Shown one piece after another: positions 35,917 through 56,125 of a stretch of 64,000 nt of DNA. The number at the start of each line of letters is the position of its first letter. Position 1 is the stretch's first letter. The notes under the pieces are model-generated. The model did not search any database and was not told where the DNA came from. It saw nothing but the letters and a program-made list of their open reading frames with translations. The translations under genes were made by a program, and so were the position numbers. Source of the stretch: Candidatus Nomurabacteria bacterium (GTDB taxonomy: Bacteria; Patescibacteriota; Patescibacteriia; UBA1558; GWA2-36-10); contig JACKFO010000002.1 of NCBI GenBank assembly GCA_020632415.1, positions 776,413 to 840,412 of the forward strand, read 5' to 3'.

Positions 35917-37512
35917 TTACTGATTTTTTGAGTTTTTTAAGTTTCTGCGATGTGCCTGGCGATAATGTTTGATCCCGAATTTATGAGCTTGATTTCGCAT
36001 ATTTTGGATGAATAAAGATAGCTTTGAATTTTGATCAATTTGTAAAGATTGTTTTTTTCCAGGAATAAAGATCTCTTCTTCCCTTTTGGCCAAAGAAATA
36101 ACTTTTTTTTGCCAAGATTTTTTTAAACTAGGATAAACAGTGTTCAGCTGACCCTTGCCACCATCTAGAATGATCAAATCAGGACTTGGCCACTCAGGGT
36201 GTTTTTGTCGGCGCTCGAGAACCTGTTTTAAAGAAGCGAAATCATCTGGTCCTACTATATTTTTGATTTTAAAAATACGATACTGATCGGCTGCAATTTT
36301 ACCATCAATAAAAACAATCATTGAACCATAAGAAAAGTTTCCTTGAATATTAGAAATATCGTAGACTTCAATTCTCTTCGGTAAATTTTTTAGTTTTAAA
36401 GTTTTTTGTAGTTGGATTAAAATTTCTAGTTTAGAATTATTTAGATTTTTTTGTAAATAATCCTCGGTATTTAATTTAAGTAGCTCTAATAATTTTTTAT
36501 TTTTGCCTTTTTGCGGAACAATATTTTGAATTTGAGAATTTATTAAAATATTTTTTATATCAACTTTAATTGGTGAGATTATTTCTTTTGGCAAATCAGA
36601 GCTTTGACTATAAAATTGTTGCAAGGTGCTTTCTAAGATTTCTTTGATTTTTAGATCAAGTTTGTTGTCAACAATGAAATTAAATTTATCACCTACAGTT
36701 CCGCGTCTGACTTGCAGTAAGCTGATAATTACTTGTTTTTGGAAAATACTAAAATTAATTAAGTCCTGATTAATGTTTTTGGTACTAACAATTTTTTGTT
36801 TTTCTTGTAAACGTTTTAAAGCAAGTATTTGGTTCTTTTTTTTGGCAGCTAGCTCAAATTGTTTTGCCGCGCTAGCCTGAGAAATTTCAGCCAATAGTTT
36901 TTTTTCTAAATCTTTAGTTTCGCCTTTGATGATTTTAACTGCTTCTTTGATTAATTTTTGATATTGATTTTCAGAAATAAATTTTTCACAAGGCCCATCG
37001 CAAAGTCCTAAGTGATACTGTAGACAAACTTTTCCTTTGGGGACAGTTTTCAAATCTCGAAGGCAAGTTCTTAGTGGTAAAATTCGATGTAATAAACGGA
37101 CGATATTTTTGGCGGCCAGAGTAGAAGTGTAAGGGCCGAAATGTTGACCTTTTAGCTTTTCGCGACCATGACTGACAACGATTCGAGGAAAAGCCTGTTC
37201 TGTGATCACAATATAGCCCCAGTTTTTATCATCTTTTAAAACGATGTTGTATTTTGGTTGATGTTTTTTGATTTGCCCAGCTTCAAGTAGCAAGCTTTCT
37301 AATTCGCTATCAACAATCGTGTACTGAATCTTTGTGATTTCAGAGAGCATATTTTGTTTAGCCTCTGTTAGATCATTTACACGTAACCAATACGAATTAA
37401 CTCTTTTTTTGAGATTTTTGGCTTTGCCAATATAAATAATCTTCCCTGTTTTATTGAGGAAAAAATAAATACCTGGTTTTTCTGGGATATTTTTGATATT
37501 GTCAGGAGTCAT
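35917..37512 (-). CDS. uvrC: Excinuclease ABC subunit C
   Basis: N-terminal GIY-YIG domain (PGIYFFLNKTGKIIYIGKAKNLKKRV), UvrBC-interaction region, C-terminal RNase H-like endonuclease and HhH region. Confidence 0.9.
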   Translation of the reverse strand: MTPDNIKNIPEKPGIYFFLNKTGKIIYIGKAKNLKKRVNSYWLRVNDLTEAKQNMLSEITKIQYTIVDSELESLLLEAGQIKKHQPKYNIVLKDDKNWGYIVITEQAFPRIVVSHGREKLKGQHFGPYTSTLAAKNIVRLLHRILPLRTCLRDLKTVPKGKVCLQYHLGLCDGPCEKFISENQYQKLIKEAVKIIKGETKDLEKKLLAEISQASAAKQFELAAKKKNQILALKRLQEKQKIVSTKNINQDLINFSIFQKQVIISLLQVRRGTVGDKFNFIVDNKLDLKIKEILESTLQQFYSQSSDLPKEIISPIKVDIKNILINSQIQNIVPQKGKNKKLLELLKLNTEDYLQKNLNNSKLEILIQLQKTLKLKNLPKRIEVYDISNIQGNFSYGSMIVFIDGKIAADQYRIFKIKNIVGPDDFASLKQVLERRQKHPEWPSPDLIILDGGKGQLNTVYPSLKKSWQKKVISLAKREEEIFIPGKKQSLQIDQNSKLSLFIQNMRNQAHKFGIKHYRQAHRRNLKNSKNQ

Positions 37513-37537: not shown

Positions 37538-37566
37538 TTGACATAAATAGGGCAGAGTTTTAGACT
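37538..37566 (+). promoter_or_regulatory. Consensus sigma70 promoter TTGACA-17-TAGACT driving GC-rich islet B
   Basis: -35 TTGACA at 37538-37543, exact 17-nt spacer, -10 TAGACT at 37561-37566. Confidence 0.5.
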
Positions 37567-37616
37567 TATAAAGGTTAACGGTTCTTCAAATCAGAATCAA
37601 ATCATGGAGGCCTCAG

Positions 37617-37745
37617 GTGAAGATACTTGATTGCTTAGTTTTGATTGGCGTAGGCATTTGCCTCGGCTGTCGTTGGCTTTGGTTTCAAGCTAGGTCATTG
37701 CTTACCGGTCAGCCTTTTGACATGGAAGATGTCTGGGGCGACTAG
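37617..37745 (+). CDS. Candidate 42-aa hydrophobic peptide (GTG start; VKILDCLVLIGVGICLGCRWLWFQARSLLTGQPFDMEDVWGD)
   Basis: GGAGG SD 7 nt upstream of the GTG; GC-rich codons; not in the ORF track (too short, non-ATG start). Confidence 0.25.
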   Translation: MKILDCLVLIGVGICLGCRWLWFQARSLLTGQPFDMEDVWGD

Positions 37746-37761
37746 AAAGGAGGAGTCTGTC

Positions 37762-37899
37762 ATGTACGTTAGAGAAACATGGTCGGAAAAGTTAGTTGAT
37801 CGTTTGTGCTTGATCGCAATTCAATTGTTTTGTTACGCTCTGGTTTACGTCATTATTAAGCCCGCATCTTTCATAAGTACGCATAAGAGAAATTATTGA
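37762..37899 (+). CDS. Small single-TM protein (45 aa, MYVRETWSEKLVDRLCLIAIQLFCYALVYVIIKPASFISTHKRNY)
   Basis: Perfect AAAGGAGG SD 7 nt upstream of the ATG; hydrophobic core; basic tail. Confidence 0.4.
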   Translation: MYVRETWSEKLVDRLCLIAIQLFCYALVYVIIKPASFISTHKRNY

Positions 37900-37914
37900 A
37901 ACAGGAGGTGGCAG

Positions 37915-38121
37915 ATGAAATTGGTAGTGCAAAACATTTGTCCGCACTGTCGTAGATTTGTCTCGGGTGAGTATTGCCCGGGGGAAGTTCACAATTGTCC
38001 ATATGGAGACTGTGGACAGCAATTTTACGTGGTCTTTTTCGAAGATAACATCGCTTTCGTGATGCAGTACCCAGAAGATTTTCAGCGGTACGCACAGGAA
38101 TTTTTACCAGGAGTATTCTGA
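37915..38121 (+). CDS. Small zinc-ribbon protein (CPHC...CPYGDC), 68 aa
   Basis: AGGAGG SD 6 nt upstream; four Cys in a CxxC-x13-CxxxxC arrangement; GC-rich codon usage unlike the host. Confidence 0.45.
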   Translation: MKLVVQNICPHCRRFVSGEYCPGEVHNCPYGDCGQQFYVVFFEDNIAFVMQYPEDFQRYAQEFLPGVF

Positions 38122-38147
38122 TGAAAAGGAGGAATGACATCTGAGAT

Positions 38148-38180
38148 CCGTTAGGCGCCCTAGGGCCTAACGGATTTTTT
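38148..38180 (+). terminator. GC-rich intrinsic terminator closing islet B (ccgttaggc...gcctaacgg plus T7)
   Basis: 9-bp perfect stem followed by ATTTTTTT. Confidence 0.6.
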
Positions 38181-41670: not shown

Positions 41671-41820
41671 TCTCTAATTAGTTTTATTTGACTACATTAT
41701 TATAACATGATTTCTTTTTTTCTAGTAATAGATTATGTTTTTTAGTCGTTTGCTTTATTTTTTGAAAAGTAGTAAGTTATTTTTGTTTTCTAAAGCATAA
41801 AAAACATTGAGGAGGAAGCA

Positions 41821-42090
41821 ATGTTGAAAGCTTTGCTCTTTATCAAAAAACACTGGCTAATAACTTTATTAGCTGTCTGGAGCTTGGTCTCCAAAATCAT
41901 CTTTGGGCATTTTTTTTGGGTCTTGTTCCTTTCTTGGCCAACCTGGGTCAAGTGGAGTGTGTTGGTTTGGTTGTTTGGAATTTTTTTGCTTTGCCTATTT
42001 ATGCATGGTTGCAAAACCGTCACCAAAAATTCATCAATCTCCAATTTCAATCAGGAGGACTTAACTCATGTGGGAACTCATCAGTGCTAA
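41821..42090 (+). CDS. Small two-TM membrane protein (89 aa), hypothetical
   Basis: GAGGAGG SD 6 nt upstream of the ATG; Trp/Leu-rich hydrophobic sequence. Confidence 0.4.
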   Translation: MLKALLFIKKHWLITLLAVWSLVSKIIFGHFFWVLFLSWPTWVKWSVLVWLFGIFLLCLFMHGCKTVTKNSSISNFNQEDLTHVGTHQC

Positions 42091-42217
42091 CTGGCAGATT
42101 GCTTCTGGCAGTCTTCTGATCATCATCCTGTTCATCTGGTACTCTGTGTGGAGAACCTCTGCTCCTGACCGTGAGCGACGAAAAAAGCATTTTGCCAAGA
42201 AGGCAAAGCATGGCTAG
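42068..42217 (+). CDS. Candidate 49-aa type-I-toxin-like peptide (MWELISANWQIASGSLLIIILFIWYSVWRTSAPDRERRKKHFAKKAKHG)
   Basis: AGGAGG SD 7 nt upstream; one TM helix followed by a strongly basic tail; GC-rich codons; followed by a strong terminator; absent from the ORF track (shorter than 60 aa). Confidence 0.3.
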   Translation: MWELISANWQIASGSLLIIILFIWYSVWRTSAPDRERRKKHFAKKAKHG

Positions 42218-42241
42218 TCGTCGCTACTCGAGCCTGATCAG

Positions 42242-42284
42242 GCCCCGTCAACTCCTCAGTGTGGAGCGGACGGGGCTTTTAATT
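42242..42284 (+). terminator. GC-rich intrinsic terminator closing islet C (gccccgtc...gacggggc plus T-run)
   Basis: 8-bp outer stem with a nested inner stem (ctcc/ggag), followed by TTTTAATTTT. Confidence 0.55.
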
Positions 42285-42384
42285 TTCTTGCTGATTTTAA
42301 AATTAAGAGCAGAGCTCTTTAGTTATTGACGCTTAGTGTTTTTCGTGTTATCCTTTACAGGATTTATTTATTTTTTACAAAACA

Positions 42385-45246
42385 ATGTCAAAAAATATCG
42401 TCATCAAAGGAGCGCGCGTTCATAATCTCAAAAATATCGATGTCAAAATTCCTCGTGATAAATTAGTGGTAATCACTGGACTTTCTGGCTCAGGAAAATC
42501 ATCACTTGCTTTTGATACTATCTACGCTGAAGGTCAGCGTCGTTATGTAGAATCACTGTCGGCATATGCTCGACAGTTTTTAGGTTTGATGGATAAACCA
42601 GACGTTGATCAAATCGAGGGTTTGAGCCCGGCTATTTCCATTGATCAAAAAACTTCTTCTCGAAATCCTCGCTCGACAGTGGGAACAGTGACAGAAGTGT
42701 ATGATTACTTGCGTTTGTTATATGCCAGAATTGGCAAACCGCATTGTCATCTTTGTGGCCAAGAAGTAGTCAAACAATCTTTGCAACAAATTGCTGAAAA
42801 AGTTTGGGGCTTACCAGCGGAAACTGATTTTGTGATTTTATCCGCAGTGATTAGAGATAAAAAAGGGGAACACAAAAAAGTTCTCGAGCACATGCAGCGA
42901 GCTGGTTATCGTCGCTTGCGTTTGGACGGTGAGTTAATGACTTTTGAAGATGCGCAAATTGTTGTTTTAGATAAACAAAAAAAACACACAATTGAAGTCG
43001 TGATTGATCGTTTACGAAAAGATGGCTCCAAAGAAACTAAATCTCGTTTATTGCAATCATTAGAAACAGCTTTAGATTTAGGAAATGGTTTTATTACAAT
43101 CAATATCCCTAAGACAGAAGAAAATTTATTTTTCAGCGAACATTTTACTTGTCCGGTGCATAGTGAAGTCAGTTTTCCAGAAATTGAAGCACGTAATTTC
43201 TCTTTTAATAGTCCGCACGGAGCTTGTCCTGATTGTACTGGTTTGGGTAATAAATTAATCGTTGATCCAGAATTGGTTATTCCAAATAAAAAACTATCTT
43301 TATCCGAAGGAGCAATTCGTCCTTGGTCAAGAACCGCTGCTAATCAGACTTGGTATTTTAGAATTTTAGAAGCAGTAGCTAAAAAGAATAAATTTTCAGT
43401 TAATGATCCAGTAGAAAAATTAACTCAAAAACAACTGGACATTATTTTTTATGGCACCGGTGATGAGCGCTACCAAATGGAAATGTCGGGAGATAAATTT
43501 AGTGGCGATTATAATACAAGTTTTGAAGGGGTAATTCCAAATCTGCAACGTCGTTATCGAGAGACTGACTCGGATTATATTCGTAGTGAAATTGAGCGCT
43601 ACATGCGGATCACTCCTTGTGAGACTTGCCAGGGAAAAAGATTAAAAAAAGAAGTTTTAAGCATCACTGTCGGCGAGCAAAATATTTCCGAAGTTGCCGG
43701 TTTAAACATTGTTGAAAGTAAGAAATTTTTTGTTGATTTAGAAAAGAAGTTGTCCGAACGAGAGTTGACGATCGTCAAGCAAGTTTTAAAAGAAATCAAA
43801 GAACGTTTAACTTTTTTAAATAACGTTGGTTTAAGCTATTTGACTTTAGACAGGTCAGCTAATACTTTGTCTGGCGGCGAAGCACAACGTATTCGTTTGG
43901 CTACGCAGATTGGCTCTTCTTTAATGGGTGTTTTGTATATCTTAGATGAGCCTTCGATTGGTTTACACCAAAAAGACAATGCAAAATTAATCGAAACTTT
44001 ACAAAATTTAAGAGATTTAGGAAACACAGTAATTGTCGTTGAACATGATGAAGAAACTATTTTGGCCGCTGACCATGTGATAGACATCGGACCGGGAGCA
44101 GGAAAGCATGGCGGAGAAGTGATTGCTGAAGGTACGCCACAATCAATTAAGAAAAATAAAAAGTCTATTACCGGGAAATATCTTTCTGGTACCTTGTCTA
44201 TTTCTAGTCCAAAAAAATATCGTCCTGGTAATGGTAAGACTTTGTCGATTATTGGGGCCTCGGCTTTTAATCTCAAAGAGATTGACGTTCATTTTCCTTT
44301 GGGTAAATTTATCAGCATCACTGGAGTTTCTGGATCTGGTAAGTCTACCTTGATGACAGAAATTTTAGCCAAAGCCTTGAAGCAACATTTTTATCGAGCC
44401 AAAGACAATCCTGCGCAACATAAAATGATCAAAGGTTTAGAGTATATTGATAAAGTAATTGATATTGATCAGTCGCCAATTGGTCGTACGCCTCGTTCTA
44501 ATCCTGCAACCTACACCGGAGTTTTCACTTATATTCGTGATTTATTTGCCGAATTGCCAGAAGCAAAAATCCGTGGTTATCGAGCTGGTCGCTTTAGTTT
44601 CAATGTTAAAGGTGGACGTTGTGAAGCTTGCCAAGGCGATGGTACGGTTAAGATTGAGATGAATTTTTTGCCAAATGTTTATGTGGAGTGTGAAGAATGT
44701 CATGGTAAACGCTACAATAATGAGGCCTTAGAAATTCACTACAAAGGCAAGGACATTGCCGAGGTTTTGCAGATGACCGTCGAAGAAGCGATGCACTTTT
44801 TTGCTAATATCCCAAATATTTATAATAAATTGAAAACTTTGTATGACGTTGGCTTGGGCTATATTCAGCTTGGTCAATCAGCAACAACACTTTCTGGTGG
44901 AGAAGCACAACGTATCAAATTAGCAACTGAGCTTGCTCGCAGGGCTTCTGGTAAGACCTTGTATATTTTGGATGAGCCGACAACTGGTTTGCATTTTGAT
45001 GATGTCAAAAGATTATTAGAAGTTTTACATCGCCTAGTAGATAAAGGAAACACGGTTTTAGTCATTGAACATAATCTTGATGTGATCAAGAGTTCTGACT
45101 GGGTGATTGATCTCGGTCCAGAAGGTGGAGACAAGGGTGGAAATTTAGTTGCTGTGGGCACACCAAAAGATGTCGCAAAAATTAAAACTAGTTTCACTGG
45201 GCAATATTTAGCCAAGATGTTTGCTGATCATAAAACTAAAAAATAA
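42385..45246 (+). CDS. uvrA: Excinuclease ABC subunit A
   Basis: Two ABC ATPase modules ([21 protein letters not shown]), ABC signatures LSGGEAQRI twice, zinc-finger Cys clusters. Confidence 0.95.
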
Positions 45247-45250
45247 AAAA

Positions 45251-45278
45251 TTCCTCTCAAGATTTGAGAGGTTTTTTG
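45251..45278 (+). terminator. Intrinsic terminator after uvrA (cctctcaa-gat-ttgagagg plus T6)
   Basis: 8-bp stem, 3-nt loop, T-run. Confidence 0.55.
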
Positions 45279-45279
45279 T

Positions 45280-45308
45280 TTGACAGTTAATTTTTGCTGT
45301 ACTAGTAT
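45280..45308 (+). promoter_or_regulatory. Consensus sigma70 promoter TTGACA-17-TAGTAT for the islet D gene
   Basis: -35 TTGACA at 45280-45285, 17-nt spacer, -10 TAGTAT at 45303-45308; the ORF-track start at 45280 is TTG of the -35 box. Confidence 0.5.
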
Positions 45309-45357
45309 GCTAGAGGTATTTTGTAAATTCAAAAGTCAATTCAACAGGAGCGAACCA

Positions 45358-45966
45358 ATGTCCAGTCTACCCGTTCTTCATATTGGACATGTCAATTTGT
45401 TGAGTGCTTCATTGCTGGCGGTTTCAATTGAGGACTTCAACGAATTTGGGTGTCCCAATTGTGGCTACCACTATGCAGAAACCGGCAATTGGTGTGGACT
45501 TGGTGTTTTTGTTAACCGTTGTCCGGAATGTGACAAGGTGTTCATGGTTTCAGATGGCTCACTGCTAGGAGGAGCTAAGCTAGGCGAGCATCCGAGAAAG
45601 GGTGTGCCGAAGCACGGCAATCTAGATCGCCGTCCTTTAAATGGAGAATATCTGCACGTTTTTGAAATTCAAGACATTTGGCCTGCGCAGCTGACCTTTT
45701 TTTGTGAATTTTGCGAAGCTTGTATTTTTTGCGGAGGAACCCATCTTGTTGACCATCGCCTTTTTGGCTCGGTACATTGTCAGGCAGCGGCCAGAAGGAT
45801 TATGCTGATGTTCAAGACTGGCGTTACTTTGCTATTCAGGGATTCCAATCCTGATAAGGTGATGGTAGTTTTTTCATCTTGTGACAGGCATCGAGATAGA
45901 CTTCAGAAATTGCGAGAATCGATTGCTGACAATGGAAATGTAATCCTCGAAGAAATGACTAAATGA
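45358..45966 (+). CDS. Cysteine-rich protein (about 202 aa) with zinc-ribbon-like CPNCG...CPECD and CEFCEACIFCGG clusters; GC-rich foreign-looking gene
   Basis: AGGAG SD upstream of the ATG at 45358; 14 Cys; codon usage dominated by GC-ending codons unlike neighbouring genes; followed by a strong terminator. Confidence 0.5.
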   Translation: MSSLPVLHIGHVNLLSASLLAVSIEDFNEFGCPNCGYHYAETGNWCGLGVFVNRCPECDKVFMVSDGSLLGGAKLGEHPRKGVPKHGNLDRRPLNGEYLHVFEIQDIWPAQLTFFCEFCEACIFCGGTHLVDHRLFGSVHCQAAARRIMLMFKTGVTLLFRDSNPDKVMVVFSSCDRHRDRLQKLRESIADNGNVILEEMTK

Positions 45967-46002
45967 TCTTGGTGATAAGGCGCTTGTCTATTGCCGTTGA
46001 TT

Positions 46003-46050
46003 TGCCCCCTCCGATTCAGCGGACGGGGGCTTTCTTTTATCTGGTTTTTT
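46003..46050 (+). terminator. GC-rich terminator closing islet D (gccccctccg...cggacgggggc plus T-rich tract)
   Basis: Imperfect 10-bp GC stem followed by TTTCTTTT...TTTTTT. Confidence 0.5.
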
Positions 46051-46068
46051 GTTTAAGATATAGATATT

Positions 46069-47028
46069 ATGCGACAAGTGATCGAACAATCTATTTTAAA
46101 AACAATCGCTTTTTTTGATGTTTTTAATTATCCTTTGACTGCGGAAGAGATTTGGAAGTGGCTTTATCGCCCCGGCAGAGAAGTTTCACTTTCAGAGATT
46201 AAAGACATTTTAGAGGAGAGTCCTGTCTTGCAAGAAAAGCTTGTTCGCACAGAAGCTTTTTGGTCCTTAAAAGGGCGAGAGTATACTCATATTATTCGTA
46301 AGCATCATAATAATTTAGCTGAACGTAAATTTAATCGAGCAATTCGCTTGGTTAAGTTTTATAAATTTTTGCCATTTATTAAAATGATTGCTATTTGCAA
46401 TACTTTGGCTTATAGCAATACTAACGAGGAAAGTGATATTGATTTTTTTGTAGTTGCTCAAAAGGGTAAAATTTGGTTGGTCAGACTTCTGAGCATTTTA
46501 GTGATTCATATTCTTGGTTTACGTCCGACCAAAAAATCTAGTCGCGATGCTTTTTGTTTTAGTTTTTTTATTACCGATGATTTTTTGGATATTCAAAATA
46601 CGATGATGCAGCGAGATGACATTTATTTGCCTTATTGGATCATGCAAATGTTGCCAGTGTATAATCGACAAAATACTTATCAAAAATTTATTGATAGTAA
46701 TTCATGGGCCAAAAAACATTTGCCCAATGCCTATCCAAATCAATTTGCCAAAGAAGTGAAAGCTTCTTGGTTTTCTAAATTAGTTTCTCAAATTTTAGCT
46801 TTACTTTTTTCACCACCATTTTTTGGCCGAGCTTTTGAATTAGTTTATCGTCGGATTCAAGCTAGAATCATCGGAGAGAATTTGAAAGAAATGATCAATG
46901 TCGATACTAGAGTGATTGTTAATGAGCACATGTTAAAATTTCACTCCAATGATCGTCGAGAATTATATTATAAGAAATGGCGAGATCGAATGAGTGATTT
47001 AATAGAAAAAGAAAATGAAAATGTCTAA
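46069..47028 (+). CDS. Hypothetical protein (319 aa), possibly membrane-associated; translationally coupled to the downstream O-antigen-ligase-like gene
   Basis: ORF with hydrophobic central segment; no recognised catalytic motif; 14-nt overlap with the next gene. Confidence 0.45.
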   Translation: MRQVIEQSILKTIAFFDVFNYPLTAEEIWKWLYRPGREVSLSEIKDILEESPVLQEKLVRTEAFWSLKGREYTHIIRKHHNNLAERKFNRAIRLVKFYKFLPFIKMIAICNTLAYSNTNEESDIDFFVVAQKGKIWLVRLLSILVIHILGLRPTKKSSRDAFCFSFFITDDFLDIQNTMMQRDDIYLPYWIMQMLPVYNRQNTYQKFIDSNSWAKKHLPNAYPNQFAKEVKASWFSKLVSQILALLFSPPFFGRAFELVYRRIQARIIGENLKEMINVDTRVIVNEHMLKFHSNDRRELYYKKWRDRMSDLIEKENENV

Positions 47029-48295
47029 ATTTTATAAAATTTTATTTTTTTTGCTGATTCTTATTTTGCCATTTCAAACTCGTTGGATTTTTTTTGATCA
47101 TTTATTAAATCAACAAGTTTGGGAGTATGGTCGTTTAAGCTTGTATTTAAGCATGCTTTTTTTATTTTTGTTAAGTAGCTTTTATTTTAAAGATTTTGTT
47201 AGCAAATTTAAAAAGAATTTTTGGAAAAATAAGAAGCTAGTTAGTTTTCTTTTGTTACTAATTTATCTTTTGTTCATCAGTATTTTTTCTCCACTGCCAG
47301 ATGTCTCTTTTTATTTAATATCTTTTTTGCTTGGTGCTGCTTTATTTTGGCAAGTCTTGCAAAGAACAGAAAAAAAATTAATTTATACTAGTCTGATTTT
47401 TAGTGGAGTTGTCCAAAGCGTCTTGGCCATTTTACAAACTTTGCAGCAAACAGTTTTTGCTAATAAATTTTTAGGAATCGCCGAACATCTACCAGAAACT
47501 TTGGGTACTTCTGTTGTGGAATTTGGTTTAGATCGAATTTTGCGTGCTTACGGCTCTTTTCCGCATCCAAATATTTTAGGTGGATTTTTAGTGCTTAGTG
47601 TTTTGGCTGGAATTTGGTGGTGGATTTTTATTTATCATCAAGCCAAAGAAGTTTCTTGGCGCGGTCCAAAAATGAAATTTTTGTTGTTAAAATTATTACT
47701 AGTTTTGGTTTCTTTATTATTGATAATTTTTGCCTTACTTTTGACTTTTTCTCGTAGTGCGATTCTAGCCTTAGTTTTAGCTTTAGTTTTTATTTTAATT
47801 AAAGCTTGGCGACAAAAACAAAGACTCAAGTTTCAAGTAGCTGCCAAAGCAATTATTTTGTTTTTGATTTTAGTTTGGCAAGTTTCTATTTTATTTCCAG
47901 GAGTTTGGACGGCACGATTTTTAGGCACTGAACGCTTGGAGCAAAAATCAATCAACGAAAGAATTAGCAGCGTTTCACAAATCGATTGGCGCAATTATTC
48001 AGAGTTATTTTTTGGGCAAGGCCTGGGTTTGAACACTTATCGTTATTTAAATTCTGAACAAGCACCTTATGAAGTTCAGCCAATTCATAATTTTTTTCTT
48101 TTGGTTTTAGCAGAGATTGGCGTGCTTGGGTTTTTATTATTATTTAATTTAGCTTGGCAATTGTTAGATCGAAATTATTTAAATTTGTTTAATCCTTGGA
48201 TTTTAGCTTTGTTAGTTTTAGCTTTTTTTGATCATTATCTGTGGACGAGCTGGAGTGGCTGGCTAATGCTTAGTTTATTTTTAACTAAAAAATAA
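47015..48295 (+). CDS. O-antigen ligase / Wzy_C-family polytopic membrane protein
   Basis: About 10 TM helices with a large loop between late helices; general resemblance to WaaL/O-antigen polymerase family topology. Confidence 0.45.
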   Translation: MKMSKFYKILFFLLILILPFQTRWIFFDHLLNQQVWEYGRLSLYLSMLFLFLLSSFYFKDFVSKFKKNFWKNKKLVSFLLLLIYLLFISIFSPLPDVSFYLISFLLGAALFWQVLQRTEKKLIYTSLIFSGVVQSVLAILQTLQQTVFANKFLGIAEHLPETLGTSVVEFGLDRILRAYGSFPHPNILGGFLVLSVLAGIWWWIFIYHQAKEVSWRGPKMKFLLLKLLLVLVSLLLIIFALLLTFSRSAILALVLALVFILIKAWRQKQRLKFQVAAKAIILFLILVWQVSILFPGVWTARFLGTERLEQKSINERISSVSQIDWRNYSELFFGQGLGLNTYRYLNSEQAPYEVQPIHNFFLLVLAEIGVLGFLLLFNLAWQLLDRNYLNLFNPWILALLVLAFFDHYLWTSWSGWLMLSLFLTKK

Positions 48296-48317
48296 ATTTA
48301 TTATTAAAATAAAAATC

Positions 48318-48497
48318 ATGGGTAAAAAAATGGAATGTGGTTCAGGCGGAGCTATTTATGGCCTGGGTTTAATTGGCGCAGCAGTTTTTTATATTTCTCA
48401 AGCTGCTAGTTTTGGCGCCGGGATTCTGGGCTTTTTAAAAGCTTTAGTTTGGCCAGCTTTTTTGGTTTATGATTTACTGATGTTTTTGGCAAAATAA
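48318..48497 (+). CDS. Small membrane protein (59 aa, MGKKMECGSGGAIYGLGLIGAAVFYISQAASFGAGILGFLKALVWPAFLVYDLLMFLAK)
   Basis: Gly/Ala-rich two-helix hydrophobic ORF, not in the ORF track because shorter than 60 aa. Confidence 0.3.
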   Translation: MGKKMECGSGGAIYGLGLIGAAVFYISQAASFGAGILGFLKALVWPAFLVYDLLMFLAK

Positions 48498-48523
48498 AAG
48501 CCTTGTTGTTTAGAACAGAGGAT

Positions 48524-48552
48524 TTGACAAAAGATAATTAGCACTCTATAAT
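48524..48552 (+). promoter_or_regulatory. groESL sigma70 promoter TTGACA-17-TATAAT
   Basis: Perfect consensus hexamers with 17-nt spacing; the -10 box lies in the CIRCE spacer. Confidence 0.7.
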
Positions 48553-48564
48553 GTAGAGTGCTAA
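48538..48564 (+). promoter_or_regulatory. CIRCE operator (HrcA binding site) TTAGCACTC-N9-GAGTGCTAA
   Basis: Exact match to the CIRCE consensus inverted repeat, positioned over the promoter upstream of groES. Confidence 0.85.
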
Positions 48565-48651
48565 TTTAATTTCTCTGCTTTGAGCGATTAAGCAGGGAGG
48601 TCAGGAGGGATTTGCCCTCCTGGAAAAAATAATTATTAATTTAAGAAAAAT

Positions 48652-48927
48652 ATGCAATTAAAACCACTAGGAGACAGAGCGGTGATCAAAGCTTTGCCAA
48701 AAGAAGAAACTACCAAGTCAGGAATTATTTTACCGGATAGTTTAAATAAAGATAACAAACAAGAAGGTGAAATTGTAGCTATTGGCAATGGTGAGAAAAT
48801 CGCTAAGTTAAATTTAAAACCAGGTCAAAAAGTTGTTTTTTCTGAATACGGCGGCAGCGAAGTCAAAATTGACGAGCAAGAATATAAAATTTTGAGTCAC
48901 GATGAGCTCTTGGCTGTTGTTGAATAA
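48652..48927 (+). CDS. groES: Co-chaperonin GroES
   Basis: 91 aa, LKPLGDRAVIK start and mobile loop; immediately upstream of groEL. Confidence 0.95.
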   Translation: MQLKPLGDRAVIKALPKEETTKSGIILPDSLNKDNKQEGEIVAIGNGEKIAKLNLKPGQKVVFSEYGGSEVKIDEQEYKILSHDELLAVVE

Positions 48928-48931
48928 TTAA

Positions 48932-50584
<1,653 letters not shown>

Positions 50585-50673
50585 ACTAAAGAAAAAATAT
50601 TTTTTAAGCCTCCAGTTTATGCTGGGGGCTTATTTTGTTTATAGCGGCAAAAAATGCTATAATATAGACATAA

Positions 50674-51426
50674 ATGAGCATGTTTAAAGATTTTGAAAAA
50701 GAAGAAGAATTAGATTTCCAGAGTGGCGAAAACTATCCCTGGGAATACGAAGAAAGTCACGAGATTTGGGTGGCTGACTTAAATGTTGCCGAACAAAAAA
50801 AATCACTTCGACAAGCCCAGGATCACGAAGTGGTAAAGGAGTCTGAACTTGAGCAATTGGATTTAGCTCAGGATGAGTCAGAAGAATTAGAATTAGCAGA
50901 AGAGACTTCTGAGTCTTTCGATGAATCAGAGCTTCAAGATGAAGAAGGACTTGAGGTTACTGATGAAGATTTGGAAATTTCCGAAACAGAAGAAGATTTG
51001 ATTTTAGAGACAAGAGAGAATTTGGAAGTTAAAAATAAAAAAAGCACTGGGCAAAATGATTTTTCTTGGTTATTTTTTGGCTTATTGTTGTTAGCTATTT
51101 TATTTGGTGGAGAAATAGTTTTACTGGCTTTGAAAAATAGTTTTTATTGGACAGATAAAGTTCTTTTTTTACTAGTCTGGCTTTGGCGTTTTGTTTTACT
51201 GATTTCTTGGTTATTTTTTTCTTTGGTCAAGAAAAGTTTTTTTAAAGAAAAGATAGTTGCTGCTACTTTAAGCGCCTTTACTTTGGGAGTTTTCTTCTCA
51301 GCAATTTGGAAAATTGTTGTGATCAAATCAGTTTGGACTTGGCTTAATTTGTTGATTGAGCCAATTTGGATGTTTTTATTAGCGGCCTTAGTAATCATTT
51401 TATTTATTAAAATATTTAAAAAATAA
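50674..51426 (+). CDS. Membrane protein with a highly acidic (E/D-rich) N-terminal domain and four C-terminal TM helices, hypothetical
   Basis: Composition and hydropathy only. Confidence 0.4.
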   Translation: MSMFKDFEKEEELDFQSGENYPWEYEESHEIWVADLNVAEQKKSLRQAQDHEVVKESELEQLDLAQDESEELELAEETSESFDESELQDEEGLEVTDEDLEISETEEDLILETRENLEVKNKKSTGQNDFSWLFFGLLLLAILFGGEIVLLALKNSFYWTDKVLFLLVWLWRFVLLISWLFFSLVKKSFFKEKIVAATLSAFTLGVFFSAIWKIVVIKSVWTWLNLLIEPIWMFLLAALVIILFIKIFKK

Positions 51427-51436
51427 TTAAAAAAAT

Positions 51437-51754
51437 ATGGAAGAAAGAGTAAGAAATGAAAAAGACATTGAAAACAACAAAGTTATCGCAGCTTTGTCTT
51501 ATGTTTGGATTTTATGTCTAGTTCCTTTATTTTTAAAGCGCAAATCTGACTTTGCCCAATTTCATGCCAAGCAAGGTTTACTTTTGTTTGTCTTGGAGAT
51601 TGTGGGTTGGTTAGTTTTTTGGATTCCAATCATCGGTTGGGCTTTATTCATTATGGTGATTTTATTTTCTCTATTGGGAATCAGAAATGCTTTGGATGGT
51701 AAATATTGGGTCATGCCTTTTTTGGGAAAATACGTCAATAAGTTGAATTTATAA
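51437..51754 (+). CDS. Small membrane protein, DUF4870/Tic20-like family
   Basis: LSYVWILCLVPLFLKRKSDFAQFHAKQGLLLFVLEIV matches the conserved core of this family. Confidence 0.45.
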   Translation: MEERVRNEKDIENNKVIAALSYVWILCLVPLFLKRKSDFAQFHAKQGLLLFVLEIVGWLVFWIPIIGWALFIMVILFSLLGIRNALDGKYWVMPFLGKYVNKLNL

Positions 51755-51760
51755 AATATT

Positions 51761-53203
51761 GTGCTTAAAAAAACAAAGATTGTCGCTACTATCGGACCAA
51801 GTTCTGAGAGTGGTAAAATTTTACTTCAATTAATTAAGTCAGGGATGAATGTCGCCCGGCTTAATTTTTCTCATGGTGATCATCGATCACACGCTCTTTT
51901 GATTAAAAATATTCGTAGTGCCGCTTCAAAAGCTAAACAGGAAATAGCAATCATTCAGGATTTGCAGGGCCCAAGGATTAGAGTTGCTAAAATTACTGAC
52001 CAAGGTTTGGATTTGCAAAATAGAGAAAAGATTATTTTGGTTTCCTCAAATGTTTTACAAGCAGTTAATTTGCTTAGTTTACCACATCGAGTGATTCCGG
52101 TTGATTATGATCATTTTGCTGAGAGCCTTGGTTTACGGAGCAGTATTTTGATTTCCGACGGTTTGATTCAATTGGCAGTTGAAAAAATTGAAGATCATTT
52201 GGTTTACGCTAAAGTAATCAAAGGAGGTTTAGTTTTGTCTCACAAAGGTATTAATGTTCCTGGTCTAAAATTGAAAACCGCAGTAATCACTGAGAAAGAC
52301 AAAAAAGATTTAGCCTTTGGTTTAAAACAGGGAGTAGATTTTGTTGCTTTGTCTTTTGTTGGCTCTGCTCAAGATATTTTAGACTTAAAGAAACTTATCA
52401 ATAAATTAAAGCCAAAACAAAAACCGCAAGTGATCGCAAAAATTGAAAGAATGGAGGCTTTTAAAAATAAAAAAGAAATCATCAAGGCTGCTGATGCAAT
52501 CATGGTCGCGCGTGGAGATTTGGGAATCGAGGTGCCACAAGCAAAAGTTCCACTGATGCAAAAAGAATTAATTTTTGATTGTTTGGCTGAAAGTAAACCA
52601 GTGATTGTGGCGACACAAATGCTTGATTCGATGATTCAAAATCCTAAGCCAACTCGAGCTGAAGTTTCAGATGTTGCTAATGCAGTGATTGATGGCACAG
52701 ATGCAGTAATGCTTTCTGGAGAAACAGCTTTTGGCAAATATCCAGTAGAGACAGTCAAGGTGATGCAGGATATTATCGTTGCTACTGAAAAATCACCTTA
52801 TCAAAAAAATATTTCTAGTCATGCCGACAAACAAGACAGTGATATTCAAGCTGTTGCTGATTCGGTTTTTCATTTAGCTAGAAATGCCCATGCCAAATTA
52901 ATCGTAGCTTTTACTAGATCAGGATTTACGGCCAAAGTGATTGCTCGTTATCGATCAGAAAAAGCGATCGTCGCTATGGTCGTAGAAGAAAACATTGCTC
53001 GTCAACTTAATTTAGTCTGGGGAGTAGAAAGTTGTTTGATTAAAGATTGCTCCAATCTAACAGAGCTTATAGAAGTTTCAGAAAAAATTCTTTTGAAAAA
53101 TAAAAAAGTAAAAATTGGTGATAAAATTGTTTTTGTTTCTGGCCAGCTTTTAGGCCAAACGCACAATATAAATGTGATCCAATTACATACTATAAATAAA
53201 TAG
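51761..53203 (+). CDS. pyk: Pyruvate kinase (GTG start)
   Basis: KIVATIGP, NFSHG, MVARGDLG and related pyruvate kinase motifs. Confidence 0.92.
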   Translation: MLKKTKIVATIGPSSESGKILLQLIKSGMNVARLNFSHGDHRSHALLIKNIRSAASKAKQEIAIIQDLQGPRIRVAKITDQGLDLQNREKIILVSSNVLQAVNLLSLPHRVIPVDYDHFAESLGLRSSILISDGLIQLAVEKIEDHLVYAKVIKGGLVLSHKGINVPGLKLKTAVITEKDKKDLAFGLKQGVDFVALSFVGSAQDILDLKKLINKLKPKQKPQVIAKIERMEAFKNKKEIIKAADAIMVARGDLGIEVPQAKVPLMQKELIFDCLAESKPVIVATQMLDSMIQNPKPTRAEVSDVANAVIDGTDAVMLSGETAFGKYPVETVKVMQDIIVATEKSPYQKNISSHADKQDSDIQAVADSVFHLARNAHAKLIVAFTRSGFTAKVIARYRSEKAIVAMVVEENIARQLNLVWGVESCLIKDCSNLTELIEVSEKILLKNKKVKIGDKIVFVSGQLLGQTHNINVIQLHTINK

Positions 53204-53256
53204 CTTTAACATGACTTTTTTGTTATAATAAATAAAAATATTGATCTAAAATACTT

Positions 53257-55662
53257 ATGCAGAAAAATAAATTCATCTTGTGGTTTAAAGAAACAGGAAT
53301 TAAAGATATTCCAAAAGTAGGAGGCAAGAATGCTTCTTTGGGAGAAATGTACAGCAAATTAACTAAGCAAGGAGTTTCAGTGCCAAATGGTTTTGCAGTC
53401 ACCGCTTTTGCTTATGATTATTTTTTGGCTGCCGCCGGAGTCAAAGATGAAATCAAAGACATTTTAAAAGATCTGGATACTTCGAGTATTAAAAATTTAT
53501 CTGAGCGTGGTCATAAGGTTAGACAAATAATTTTGAATGCTAAATTTCCTCAAGACTTACAAAGCACAATTATTGAGGCTTATCACAAACTATCCAAAGA
53601 ATCAAAACAGGTAAACACTGACGTGGCTATTCGTTCTTCGGCAACTGCTGAAGATTTACCAGATGCTTCTTTTGCTGGTCAACAAGAATCGTATTTAAAT
53701 ATCAAAGGCGATAAAGAGGTTTTGGAAGCTTGTAAAAAATGTGTGGCTTCTTTATTTACTGATCGGGCAATTTCTTATCGAGTGGATAAAAAATTCGACC
53801 ACTTTAGCATTAAACTTTCGATTACTGTGCAAAAAATGGTCAGATCTGACAAAGCTGCTTCAGGGGTGATGTTTTCTATTGATACTGAATCTGGTTTCAA
53901 AGACGCGGTTTTGATCAATGCTGCTTATGGTTTAGGAGACTATATTGTTCAAGGCGTAGTTACTCCAGATGAATACTATGTTTTTAAACCAAATCTAAAA
54001 CCAGGTTTAAATCCAGTGATTAGCAAAGCTTTAGGTTTGAAAAGAAAGAAATTAATTTATAATACTTCAGGTAAGGGCGGATCGCCAATCAAGGGCATTC
54101 CAACTACCGAAGAAGAACGTGGTCAATATGTTTTGACGGACAAAGAAATTTTGCAGTTAGCTCGTTGGGCAGTGCAGATTGAAAAGCATTACAAAAAACC
54201 GATGGACATGGAGTGGGCCAAAGATGGTTTTACTGGCAAATTGTTTATTGTTCAAGCTCGTCCAGAAACTGTTCGCTCGCAAGCTGATGTCAATGTTTTA
54301 GAAGAATATGTTTTAAAAGGTAAAGGAAAATTAATTGCTCAAGGCGCTTCTGTTGGTTCAAAAATTGGCAAAGGTAAAGTTCATGTTATTGAAAACGTTG
54401 CTAATATCAGTCAGTTTCAAGCCGGCGAAGTATTAGTGACTGAAATGACTGATCCTGATTGGGAACCAATCATGAAAAAAGCAGCAGCGATCGTCACCAA
54501 TTCTGGTGGTCGAACTTGTCACGCAGCAATTATTTCTCGTGAACTTGGCATTCCTTGCGTGGTTGGCACCAAGGACGGAACTAAGACAATTAAAAATGGT
54601 GTCAATGCGACAGTTTCTTGTGCCGAAGGAGAGAAGGGTCATATTTATGAAGGGCTTTTGGATTTTATTATTCAAAAGACCGATTTGAAAAAAGTTCCTC
54701 AGCCAAAAACTAAGATCATGATGAATATTGGCAACCCAGAAATGGCTATGGCGCAAAGTTTTATTCCAAACGAAGGAGTTGGACTTGCTCGTGAAGAATT
54801 TGTTATTTCTAATTACATTAGGATTCATCCGCTTGCTTTGATTAATTTTGCAAAATTAAAAGATCAAAAAGTTAAAAAAGAAATCGCTTCTTTAACTACA
54901 GCGTATAAGAGTAAGCCACAATTTTTCGTGGATAAATTAGCTGAAGGTATTGCTCGAATCGCAGCTTCATTTTATCCAAAAGATGTGATTGTTAGACTTT
55001 CTGACTTTAAATCTAACGAGTATGCAAATTTGATCGGCGGAAAAGAATTTGAACCAACGGAATCAAATCCAATGATCGGTTGGCGTGGAGCAAGTAGATA
55101 CTATGATCCAAATTATTTGCCAGCTTTTAAACTGGAGTGCAAAGCCTTGATTAAAGTTCGAAAAGAAATGGGCTTAAATAATGTCAAAATTATGATTCCT
55201 TTTTGCCGTACCGTTGAAGAAGGAAAGAAGGTTTTGGCGATTATGGCTGAGCACGGCTTGCAACGCGGCAAGGATGGTCTGCAAGTTTATGTGATGTGCG
55301 AAATTCCTTCCAATGTAATTCTAGCTGATGAGTTTTCCAAAATTTTCGATGGCTTTTCTATTGGGTCTAATGATTTGACCCAGCTTACTTTGGGAGTTGA
55401 CCGTGATAGTGAATTGGTTTCCCATGTTTATGATGAAAAAAATCTAGCTGTCAAAACTTTGATTTCTCAAGTGATTGCCAAAGCTAAGAAAAACAAAAGA
55501 AAAATTGGTATTTGTGGACAAGCTCCTTCTGATTTTCCAGAGTTTGCTCAATTTCTAGTGGAACAGGGCATTGATTCGATTTCTTTAAACCCAGATACAG
55601 TGATTAAAACTATGATTGCGATTAATGAAACAGAAAAAAAGTTAAAACGCAAAAAGAGATAA
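53257..55662 (+). CDS. ppsA: Phosphoenolpyruvate synthase (pyruvate, water dikinase)
   Basis: N-terminal ATP-grasp, central phosphohistidine domain GGRTCHAAIISRELGIPCVVG, C-terminal PEP-utilising TIM barrel. Confidence 0.92.
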   Translation: MQKNKFILWFKETGIKDIPKVGGKNASLGEMYSKLTKQGVSVPNGFAVTAFAYDYFLAAAGVKDEIKDILKDLDTSSIKNLSERGHKVRQIILNAKFPQDLQSTIIEAYHKLSKESKQVNTDVAIRSSATAEDLPDASFAGQQESYLNIKGDKEVLEACKKCVASLFTDRAISYRVDKKFDHFSIKLSITVQKMVRSDKAASGVMFSIDTESGFKDAVLINAAYGLGDYIVQGVVTPDEYYVFKPNLKPGLNPVISKALGLKRKKLIYNTSGKGGSPIKGIPTTEEERGQYVLTDKEILQLARWAVQIEKHYKKPMDMEWAKDGFTGKLFIVQARPETVRSQADVNVLEEYVLKGKGKLIAQGASVGSKIGKGKVHVIENVANISQFQAGEVLVTEMTDPDWEPIMKKAAAIVTNSGGRTCHAAIISRELGIPCVVGTKDGTKTIKNGVNATVSCAEGEKGHIYEGLLDFIIQKTDLKKVPQPKTKIMMNIGNPEMAMAQSFIPNEGVGLAREEFVISNYIRIHPLALINFAKLKDQKVKKEIASLTTAYKSKPQFFVDKLAEGIARIAASFYPKDVIVRLSDFKSNEYANLIGGKEFEPTESNPMIGWRGASRYYDPNYLPAFKLECKALIKVRKEMGLNNVKIMIPFCRTVEEGKKVLAIMAEHGLQRGKDGLQVYVMCEIPSNVILADEFSKIFDGFSIGSNDLTQLTLGVDRDSELVSHVYDEKNLAVKTLISQVIAKAKKNKRKIGICGQAPSDFPEFAQFLVEQGIDSISLNPDTVIKTMIAINETEKKLKRKKR

Positions 55663-55684
55663 ATTAACTAAAGATTATTAATAA

Positions 55685-55710
55685 AAAGCCCAGTAAAGTT
55701 GGGCTTTTTA
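55685..55710 (+). terminator. Intrinsic terminator after ppsA (aagccca-gtaaag-tgggctt plus T-run)
   Basis: 7-bp stem and T5 run about 25 nt after the stop. Confidence 0.5.
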
Positions 55711-56103: not shown

Positions 56104-56125
56104 ATCGAATGCCTTTGAACATTAC

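Follow-up and report, generated by a model that had tools for sequence, protein, structure and literature searches.

A strain-specific, probably horizontally acquired cassette for two putative small membrane proteins upstream of uvrA in a Patescibacteria genome

The locus lies upstream of uvrA in a 64,000-nucleotide stretch of DNA from a Candidatus Nomurabacteria bacterium (here called the window), where its neighbors are uvrC, an fn3/PG-binding surface protein, and uvrA. It consists of two overlapping open reading frames (ORFs) of 89 and 49 amino acids, termed p89 and p49, each preceded by the Shine-Dalgarno (SD) sequence AGGAGG, and of an intrinsic terminator, as follows.

41810..41815, plus strand: p89 SD AGGAGG, 5 nt before the p89 ATG
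41821..42090, plus strand: p89, the first cassette gene, 89 aa, with two predicted transmembrane (TM) helices (approximately residues 12-38 and 44-62) followed by a polar C-terminal tail
42053..42058, plus strand: p49 SD AGGAGG, located within the p89 3' end, with a 9-nt spacer to ATG 42068
42068..42217, plus strand: p49 ORF, 49 aa, MWELISANWQIASGSLLIIILFIWYSVWRTSAPDRERRKKHFAKKAKHG, with stop codon TAG at 42215-42217
42068..42217, plus strand: p49 layout from ORF translation, hydropathy, and AlphaFold2, namely, a short N terminus, one hydrophobic helix (approximately residues 9-28), and a +7 Lys/Arg tail
42175..42224, plus strand: nested hairpin over the p49 end and stop codon, outer stem GCGACGA (42175-42181)/TCGTCGC (42218-42224)
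42175..42224, plus strand: inner stem of the same hairpin, TTTGCC (42191-42196)/GGCAAA (42202-42207)
42232..42243, no strand (self-match): perfect 12-nt palindrome GCCTGATCAGGC, between the p49 stop codon and the terminator
42242..42286, plus strand: intrinsic terminator of the cassette, an 8-bp GC stem and a nested 4-bp stem, then TTTTAATTTT
42326..42354, plus strand: putative own promoter of uvrA (TTGACG, 17 nt, TGtTATCCT), located beyond the cassette terminator
42385..45246, plus strand: uvrA, a flanking core gene outside the cassette

The initial annotation had described an AGGAGG ahead of ATG 42068, a single hydrophobic helix with a basic tail in the peptide, a GC-rich ORF on an AT-rich background, a nested GC hairpin terminator after p49, and an overlap with an SD-driven two-TM ORF of 89 aa, and each of these held on reanalysis. 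The overlap measures 23 nt, p49 lies in the +1 frame relative to p89, and a stop in the p49 frame stands one codon ahead of ATG 42068. A programmed frameshift fusing p89 and p49 was rejected on account of this stop, the lack of a slippery motif, and the SD of p49 itself. GC content peaked at 57% over 42061-42281, against a window mean of 36%. Kyte-Doolittle hydropathy of p49 reached a 19-residue maximum of 1.79 at residues 5-23; the best insertion window was residues 9-27, and the position-independent insertion energy of the helix was marginal (+1.7 kcal/mol). Net charge was −1 for the N terminus and +7 for the C-terminal tail (residues 29-49), and AlphaFold2 predicted a single continuous helix over residues 3-47 (pLDDT 75). 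The combination of such a size with a TM helix is common to many nontoxic small proteins. In the terminator, the outer stem is formed by GCCCCGTC (42242-42249) and GACGGGGC (42269-42276) and the inner stem by CTCC (42252-42255) and GGAG (42263-42266), and the T-run follows the outer stem. No sigma-70-like promoter scoring at least 8/12 was found in a scan upstream of p89. Readings of the locus as a double-glycine leader or an integron attC site were dropped by eye, as consensus positions misfit and partner genes were absent.

Whether p49 is a translated gene was judged from its start signal, its composition, and its folding. The hexamer AGGAGG as such was found 16 times on both strands of the window, against 15.6 times in Markov simulations, and is thus at chance level. 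The arrangement of AGGAGG 4 to 10 nt before the ATG of an ORF of at least 45 codons was found 5 times in the window, against a simulated mean of 0.12 (100 runs, with a maximum of 1 site per run), an approximately 40-fold over-representation, and ORFs competing with p49 lacked it. None of the 39 long ORFs of the window carried an SD-like motif; since GroES is preceded by AGGAG, the motif is rare yet present before at least one core gene. In the proposed frame, p49 had a codon score of −0.10, in between the values of host genes (+0.38 ± 0.14) and of off-frame sequence (−0.84 ± 0.32); its scores in the other frames were −0.46 and −0.81. GC3 was 0.58 in p49 and 0.51 in p89 (GC by codon position, 0.32/0.33/0.51), in both cases above GC1 and GC2 of the same ORF, and 0.28 in host genes. 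Codon usage this far from that of the host would also fit a cassette that arrived recently and is carried along unexpressed.

These data were weighed against the possibility that p49 is not a gene and that the stretch is GC-rich and noncoding, either a 3' untranslated region or small RNA after p89 or decaying foreign DNA, with a 49-codon ORF held open only by the scarcity of stop codons in GC-rich sequence. Four other frames of the GC-rich stretch are also open, with ORFs of 39 to 54 codons, so that ORF length alone says little, and the codon score of an antisense ORF of 54 aa (−0.19) is similar to that of p49. Moreover, a gene caller applied to an independent, identical Logan contig called p89 and uvrA and missed p49, and searches described below gave no p49 homologue and, in one close relative, a GC-rich stretch at the same site with no comparable ORF. 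The 256-nt region also folded better than shuffled sequence on both strands (z scores of −2.7 and −3.0). However, the excess structure was restricted to the last 110 nt, that is, the 3' hairpin and terminator, whereas the ORF body (42060-42172) folded no better than shuffles (z score of +0.32), and a search of the region against Rfam gave no family at gathering score or at an E value of ≤10. The chance-open ORF likewise does not account for the over-represented start arrangement, in which a perfect SD stands at functional spacing before an ATG one codon after an in-frame stop, or for the orderly hydrophobic-then-basic product, whereas the product of the antisense ORF is not hydrophobic. The generic marks of a protein-coding gene (SD spacing, in-frame composition, and a plausible product) were thus present in p49, and those of a structured noncoding RNA were absent. 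We consider a noncoding p49 unlikely and, from these features, take p49 to be a genuine, translated, protein-coding gene of foreign origin and not an RNA element.

Counting the p49/p89 pair, the window contains at least five orphan cassettes that are self-contained, led by an SD, and mostly richer in GC. The others are as follows.

13230-13478: SD-led ORF of 82 aa
37600-38180: islet A, an SD-led ORF cassette (promoter-like site, GC hairpin terminator)
45282-46054: islet D, an SD-led ORF cassette (promoter-like site, GC hairpin terminator) with a 12-nt direct repeat on its flanks
55720-56165: islet E, an SD-led ORF cassette (promoter-like site, GC hairpin terminator)

All products of these cassettes that were tested were orphans, and some neighboring cassettes of the same design encode soluble proteins, Cys-rich and others. 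The 3' arm of the terminator behind p49 is similar to the terminators of islets D and E. An echo of the islet A peptide in the p49 N terminus, suggested by the initial annotation, was not recovered: tblastn of p49 within the window at an E value of ≤100 gave no similarity to anything, and p49 was single copy in the window in protein- and DNA-level comparisons.

Homology searches beyond the window were similarly negative. An exact look-up of p49 in protein records found no entry, and a word-indexed search of approximately 5.8 billion proteins gave no match. A full phmmer search over 1.84 billion representatives returned a single match (P0002; E value of 1.8e-6), a 146-aa repeat protein of a phage tail module; it was rejected as a p49 homologue, its score being the sum over three copies of one repeat and its best single stretch having an E value of 55 at library size. 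p49 was not found in metagenome contigs, viral contigs, or plasmids, and no family matched it in Pfam (E value of ≤10), NCBIfam, or PHROGs (both at an E value of ≤1). Homology searches with p89, which included viral contigs and phage, matched p89 itself only. At the DNA level, the p49 islet was similar to nothing in the rest of the window, 80 related loci, or phage genomes.

No counterpart of p49 was present in 80 related uvrA loci, including those of genomes with UvrA 92% and 87% identical (L008 and L002, respectively). In both of these, the cassette was missing at the same site and islet D was also absent. At the cassette site, L008 has an unrelated SD-led two-TM ORF of 61 to 65 aa, which was rejected as a p89 homologue and, because its BLASTP E value was only 0.3, is at most a positional analogue of p89; L002 has the GC-rich stretch mentioned above. 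The islet intergenic region could not be aligned with L008 or L002 upstream of the uvrA start codon, and a search of GC-rich elements upstream of uvrA in relatives gave no Rfam family. The hexamers upstream of uvrA were in the same arrangement as in the window (TTGACT...TATCCT in L008 and TTGACA...TATCAT in L002). Relatives at greater distance have uvrC and uvrA immediately adjacent in divergent orientation. A target-site duplication around the cassette was unconvincing, consisting of a 10-nt T-rich match in a 28-nt stretch of 71% identity. Strain variation was nil, as all other occurrences were 100% identical contigs from two sequencing runs: a contig from one run (SRR14234111) was identical to the window across the islet, which makes sequencing error unlikely, and a contig from the second run was identical over 44689-55966 and ends short of the islet.

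In position and composition the cassette resembles phage morons, which are self-contained promoter-ORF-terminator units of deviant composition between conserved genes. It has its own SD and terminator, a GC content of 49% against 36%, conserved genes on its sides, and no equivalent in close relatives; the 64-kb window contains several units of this kind, with a 12-nt direct repeat at islet D. Unlike morons, it lies in a bacterial chromosome with no visible prophage and no phage homologues, and no promoter was found for the p89/p49 unit. This likeness bears on a second alternative, in which p49 and p89 would be a protein toxin/immunity or holin-like pair of phage or mobile origin, p49 being membrane active, p89 its partner (immunity protein, antiholin, or modulator), and translational coupling keeping the two in a fixed ratio. 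Holins and small immunity proteins typically have 1 to 3 TM helices and charged C termini, and two overlapping genes for small membrane proteins, probably cotranscribed, would suit such a pair, as would the foreign composition and the moron-like unit of SD, ORFs, and terminator that relatives lack. Nevertheless, PHROGs and Pfam were negative, viral contigs and phage genomes gave no match, and no lysin, transporter, integrase, or other phage gene is nearby, so that we hold this alternative to be quite unlikely.

The initial annotation had proposed that p49 resembles a type I toxin. In such a system, p49 would be a membrane-damaging toxin curbed by a cis-antisense RNA from the minus strand. The likeliest version has an antisense RNA of approximately 105 nt that starts near 42287, ends in a T-run near 42181, and overlaps the toxin mRNA at its 3' end. 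In another version, modeled on hok/mok, the overlapping upstream ORF could exert the control. The resemblance in build stood: p49 has fewer than approximately 60 aa, a hydrophobic predicted TM helix, and a strongly basic tail, and its accessory locus is of a kind common for toxin-antitoxin modules. No support was obtained from family matches, antisense signals, or conservation. In Pfam, NCBIfam, and PHROGs, p49 matched no described toxin family, be it Hok/Gef, Fst, Ldr, TisB, Ibs, ShoB, TxpA/BsrG-like, or another. On the minus strand, the candidate signals were the following.

42294..42321, minus strand: weak promoter-like site (TAAAGA, 16 nt, TAAAAT; 8/12), the sole possible start of a 3'-overlapping antisense RNA, at a level not above chance
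42207..42181, minus strand: terminator-like site, the inner hairpin plus ATGCTTTTTT, the only one on the minus strand there, with its 6-bp stem 4 nt from the T-run

Together, the candidate −10 element TAAAAT with its poor −35 element and the hairpin with its T-run would delimit an antisense RNA predicted to fold stably (z score of −3.3). However, both the 8/12 site and the 6-bp hairpin are at chance for AT-rich DNA. The scan of the region gave 6 promoter-like sites where 3.3 ± 1.9 were expected, and no minus-strand site downstream of p49 reached 9/12. The minus-strand T-run stems from Lys codons of the p49 tail and stands apart from a weak stem, and the z score of the putative antisense RNA merely mirrors the plus-strand terminator. 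In a thermodynamic fold of 41790-42290, the prediction for the full-length mRNA left both SDs mostly paired, with unpaired probabilities of 0.16 for the p49 SD, whose pairings were diffuse (p of approximately 0.3), and 0.23 for the p89 SD, for which a local hairpin with 41837-41844 was predicted, at pair probabilities reaching 0.93. In addition, an 11-nt stretch holding the p89 SD is complementary at 10 of 11 positions to the terminator loop, recalling the 5'-3' fold-back of hok-type mRNAs, but approximately 2 to 3 such complementary pairs are expected by chance in 800 nt.

In Bacillus subtilis TxpA/RatA, BsrG/SR4, and YonT/SR6, and also in the Fst and Ldr types, toxins carry a TM helix at the N terminus and a charged tail, and the antitoxin RNA overlaps the 3' end. 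p49 is like TxpA/BsrG-type toxins in its 49 aa, its helix followed by a Lys/Arg tail, the strong terminator directly after it, and its accessory, nonconserved site. It differs from them in matching no curated family, toxin or other, and in having no antisense promoter or terminator above chance; furthermore, unlike a stand-alone structured toxin mRNA of this type, p49 has its SD inside an upstream 89-aa ORF, and it is single copy and without relatives. In hok/mok/sok of plasmid R1, translation of the toxin gene hok is coupled to that of mok, an upstream ORF that covers nearly the whole of hok and serves no function of its own. p49 likewise starts inside an upstream ORF, with coupling probable and some 5'-3' complementarity involving an SD; unlike mok, p89 is a distinct two-TM protein that overlaps its neighbor by just 23 nt, and neither a Hok_Gef match nor Sok-like RNA signals at the 5' end were found.

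Two of the three findings that the initial annotation had named as speaking against its proposal were thus made, as there were no conserved antisense signals and p49 was not conserved in homologous islets, being absent from L008, L002, and all libraries searched. Because sister cassettes encode soluble proteins, the shared design marks a class of acquired genes and not toxin-antitoxin loci. Many small proteins with a TM helix and a basic tail are nontoxic, AcrZ being one example, and a full-text literature search gave no paper tying type I toxins to the Candidate Phyla Radiation (CPR). A type I toxin-antitoxin system is, in our judgment, very unlikely here, and less probable still is the bolder form of this proposal, in which p49 would be the toxin of a family-less type I module in Patescibacteria, 3' overlapping or hok/mok style, that rides on a class of self-contained, GC-rich, SD-led cassettes spreading into intergenic sites of a genome in which the resident genes make hardly any use of SD sequences.

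A further parallel may be found in AcrZ, KdpF, CydX, and MgtS, nontoxic membrane proteins of 30 to 90 aa that modulate larger complexes. p49 shares with them a single helix with a charged tail and a short SD-led ORF of a kind often missed by annotation and often accompanied by a cotranscribed partner. Unlike these proteins, which are lineage conserved and encoded beside their target complexes, p49 and p89 are orphans of foreign composition, and their neighbors (uvrA and the surface protein) point to no partner.

Our best reading of the cassette is therefore an orphan accessory pair of small membrane proteins and not a demonstrable toxin-antitoxin locus. We judge it reasonably likely that approximately 41800-42290 is a strain-specific, probably horizontally acquired two-gene cassette for the small membrane proteins p89 and p49. 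The cassette would occupy variable space between uvrC and uvrA of this Patescibacteria genome. We infer that p89 and p49 form an operon, with a rightward transcript that would carry both genes and end at the 42242-42286 hairpin, and that uvrA would be transcribed separately from the promoter past the cassette terminator. As the p49 SD and ATG lie in the last 37 nt of p89, p49 is probably made, through translational coupling, by ribosomes that have just finished p89. p89 would be a two-TM inner-membrane protein and p49 a single-pass inner-membrane helix, with its short N terminus out and its +7 Lys/Arg tail predicted to be cytoplasmic from the positive-inside rule. Produced together, the two proteins would presumably also act together in the membrane.

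By itself, p49 is one more orphan, unannotated gene for a small membrane protein. If p49 were toxic and controlled by RNA, type I toxin-antitoxin systems would be extended to Patescibacteria. The wider value of the locus is that it gives a clean example of a pattern in this CPR genome, in which core genes without an SD stand against cassettes with a perfect SD; here, there are at least five of these short, mostly GC-richer, strain-specific cassettes, most of them with their own terminators. If the cassettes are expressed, the pattern suggests recent gene acquisition in bacteria that are usually considered streamlined and might mean that acquired genes have a separate, SD-dependent route of translation.

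Islet C, the cassette upstream of uvrA, combines two overlapping small open reading frames (ORFs), p89 and p49, with three elements 3' of p49, and its GC content peaks at 57% over 42061-42281, among the top values in the window, a piece of Patescibacteria (CPR) chromosome with a mean GC of 36%. The initial annotation had described an AGGAGG before the ATG at 42068, the 49-aa peptide, its overlap with p89 and a hairpin terminator, and all are present in the sequence.

41821-42090, plus strand: p89, 89 aa, with its own AGGAGG 5 nt ahead of its ATG
42053-42058, plus strand: Shine-Dalgarno (SD) sequence AGGAGG of p49, 9 nt ahead of the ATG at 42068
42068-42217, plus strand: p49, 49 aa, ORF read from the sequence
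42175-42224: nested hairpin spanning the p49 stop codon, first element 3' of p49
42232-42243: 12-nt palindrome, second element 3' of p49
42242-42286: strong terminator (8-bp GC stem, nested 4-bp stem and TTTTAATTTT), third element 3' of p49

The start of p49 lies 23 nt within the p89 ORF. The proposed build of p49, a single hydrophobic helix with a Lys/Arg tail, was borne out by one segment of transmembrane (TM) grade (Kyte-Doolittle 19-residue maximum, 1.79), a tail net charge of +7 and an AlphaFold2 model with one helix spanning residues 3-47 (pLDDT 75). Its suggested likeness to a peptide of islet A found no support on comparison within the window.

The length of the p49 ORF is by itself uninformative, because the GC-rich stretch holding it is open for 39 to 54 codons in four other frames, whereas its ribosome-binding design carries information. 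Not even a 4-nt SD core was present up to 20 nt from the start of any of the window's 39 long ORFs. The two strands of the window together contain 16 copies of AGGAGG, a number in line with Markov simulations (15.6; 100 runs). Of these 16 copies, 5 stand 4 to 10 nt ahead of an ATG whose ORF runs for 45 codons or more, compared with a simulated mean of 0.12 and a maximum of 1. The five sites, all intergenic, are at 37762, 37915, 41821 and 42068 and, on the minus strand, 13478. GroES (GTG at 48682) carries AGGAG, so the motif is present before at least one core gene. SD-led starts in the window are at 13478 (minus strand), 37617, 37762, 37915, 41821, 42068, 45358, 48682 and 55831; these exceptions are GroES and a few short intergenic ORFs, each preceded at canonical spacing by AGGAGG, by AGGAG or by a different SD-like core (GGAGG, GGAGA). 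In the window, only acquired or special genes seem to use an SD.

Among reading frames, the proposed one gave p49 its best codon score (-0.10 per codon), a value intermediate between +0.38 ± 0.14 for host genes cut into 50-codon pieces and -0.84 ± 0.32 for off-frame sequence. GC3 was the highest of the codon positions in p49 (0.58) and p89 (0.51), compared to a GC3 of 0.28 in host genes, and the two patterns together have the look expected for coding sequence from a GC-richer donor. The ORF body (42060-42172) showed no folding beyond that of shuffled sequences (z = +0.32); the terminal hairpins account for the excess structure seen over the full 256-nt region (z = -2.7 and -3.0). Rfam gave no match, either at the gathering score or with the threshold relaxed to E ≤ 10. 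On the strength of the SD design, codon score, GC3, an ORF body without excess structure and the lack of an Rfam match, p49 is probably a genuine gene of foreign origin that is translated, with a modest chance that it is not. Four readings were weighed as mutually alternative: a small-membrane-protein operon, a type I module, a protein-level pair and a spurious p49. The last, in which p49 is non-coding or spurious, is unlikely on the same evidence. A gene caller run on the contig of sequencing run SRR14234111 called p89 and uvrA and skipped p49.

We consider it reasonably probable that islet C is a small-membrane-protein operon without a toxin-antitoxin role. From its anatomy and statistics we infer a rightward transcript that would span p89 and p49 and end at 42286; a search for sigma-70-like promoters matching at 8/12 positions or better gave no site upstream of p89. 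Ribosomes would load at the strong p89 SD, and those ending p89 would cross the SD and ATG of p49, both of which lie in the final 37 nt of p89, so that p49 synthesis would be coupled to that of p89. In the predicted topologies, p89 would enter the membrane with two helices and p49 would be oriented N-out, its +7 tail facing the cytoplasm; the two proteins may act jointly in the membrane.

Of the proposal that p49 is a type I toxin, the gene and its build stood, and this build does fit such a toxin, but the features specific to a type I system do not fit p49, and Pfam, PHROGs and NCBIfam gave no toxin family match. Where a cis-antisense RNA had been expected, the minus strand showed only a promoter-like site matching at 8/12 positions (42321..42294) and a 6-bp hairpin separated by 4 nt from a T-run (42207..42181), both at chance level. 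This T-run is the complement of the p49 tail Lys codons, promoter-like sites in the whole region numbered 6 (3.3 ± 1.9 expected), and the good fold of a hypothetical antisense RNA (z = -3.3) mirrors the plus-strand terminator. Both SDs are mostly paired in the predicted fold of the full-length mRNA, and the p89 SD is complementary to the terminator loop at 10/11 positions, with 2 to 3 such pairs expected by chance in 800 nt. The peptide was not found conserved in homologous islets; thus, two of the three findings that the initial annotation had named as speaking against its reading, absence of conserved antisense signals and of conservation in homologous islets, were obtained. A full-text literature search for papers that connect type I toxins to the Candidate Phyla Radiation returned none. 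A type I toxin-antitoxin module is the least probable of the four readings, and a protein-level toxin/immunity or holin-like pair of p89 and p49 is also quite improbable; no Pfam, PHROGs or NCBIfam match was obtained for any cassette product tested.

By exact look-up, p49 is absent from the records as a called gene; a word-index search found no homologue among 5.8 billion proteins, and there were no relatives in metagenome, viral or plasmid collections. Exhaustive phmmer gave a single match (E = 1.8e-6), P0002, a 146-aa protein of ~28-aa repeats (ELxSGxLxxTVxYVTYSNWRxxxPDQA) encoded at L082 / L083 6001-6441. Its score is the sum over three copies of one repeat, the best single stretch having an E value of 55 at library size, and since significance arises only from this summation, the match was taken as chance. 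The P0002 gene belongs to a phage tail module, along with Peptidase_S74, VapE and Glyco_hydro_19 genes. Judged by these searches, p49 is an orphan, and p89 matched itself alone. In two sequencing runs the organism's contigs were 100% identical to the window across overlaps, and islet C is covered by the SRR14234111 contig only.

The UvrA of the window is closest to those of MAGs labelled Patescibacteria, Komeilibacteria and Kerfeldbacteria (identity up to 92%), and none of 80 related uvrA loci holds a counterpart of p49 or p89. At the islet C position, locus L008 (UvrA 92% identical) carries a two-TM ORF of 61-65 aa with an SD before it and a terminator after it; with a BLASTP E value of 0.3, this ORF is by sequence unrelated to p89. 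Locus L002 (UvrA 87% identical) has a GC-rich stretch at the site without a comparable ORF, and the intergenic DNA of the three genomes is unalignable among them. A promoter-like site, TTGAC.-17-TATC.T, is readable upstream of the uvrA start codon in all three, so uvrA appears to have a promoter of its own, downstream of the islet C terminator, and to be independent of the cassette. Between uvrC (35917-37512, minus strand) and uvrA (from 42385, plus strand) lie 4.9 kb that hold islet A, a 1141-aa fn3/PG_binding_1 surface protein and islet C. Because in more distant relatives (L005, L014 and L015) uvrC directly adjoins uvrA in divergent orientation, we judge these 4.9 kb to be variable, inserted material, and the gap to be an accessory-DNA hotspot in the lineage. 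In many related Patescibacteria, the DNA directly 5' of uvrA includes a stretch of 110-300 nt that is rich in GC, poor in ORFs and terminator-like at its end (L003 and L005, each 3630-3930; L050, 3680-3900; L002, 3680-3890; L006, 2090-2200; L007, 3665-3777). The start of the L003 element resembles that of L005 by eye, and L006 and L007 have a near-identical leader adjoining the uvrA start. These stretches matched no Rfam family and showed no blastn similarity among themselves; they could represent small RNAs or leaders yet to be classified.

The window contains at least five SD-led units with small ORFs, islet C among them; islets A, D and E each also have a GC hairpin terminator and a site resembling a promoter, and the terminator 3' arms of islets C, D and E resemble one another.

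About 37540-38180: islet A, adjoining uvrC; promoter-like TTGACA-17-TAGACT, GC hairpin terminator at 38146-38175
About 45270-46054: islet D; SD-led Cys-rich 202-aa ORF (45358-45966), promoter-like TTGACA-17-TAGTAT, GC terminator
55720-56165: islet E; promoter-like site, GGGAG SD, 90-aa ORF (55831-56103), terminator CCCCCGTTGCGCTTGCGTGGCGGGGG followed by a T-run
13230-13478, minus strand: 82-aa ORF led by AGGAGG; TM helices predicted, C-terminal tail basic

The three SD-led ORFs of islet A encode two peptides with a hydrophobic helix (42 and 45 aa) and a Cys-rich, zinc-ribbon-like one (68 aa). Islet D separates uvrA from the conserved gene that comes next and is missing in L008 and L002, where that gene directly follows uvrA; it is flanked by a 12-nt direct repeat, GGTTTTTTGTTT (45270-45281 and 46043-46054), which could be a target duplication or recombination footprint. 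Its 202-aa protein is an orphan, with no match in the 5.8-billion library. Islet E, just upstream of tRNA-Ser(GGA) (56216-56305), has the highest GC content in the window (up to 62%), a fold z of -2.15 and no Rfam or Pfam match. The 82-aa ORF lies in the gap of two divergent genes and, unlike the other islets, is AT-rich like the host. Since the SD-led cassette design is common to soluble and membrane products, it is a mark of an acquired accessory gene class (moron-like units) and not of toxin-antitoxin loci, and its genome-wide pattern is a more interesting lead than p49 itself.
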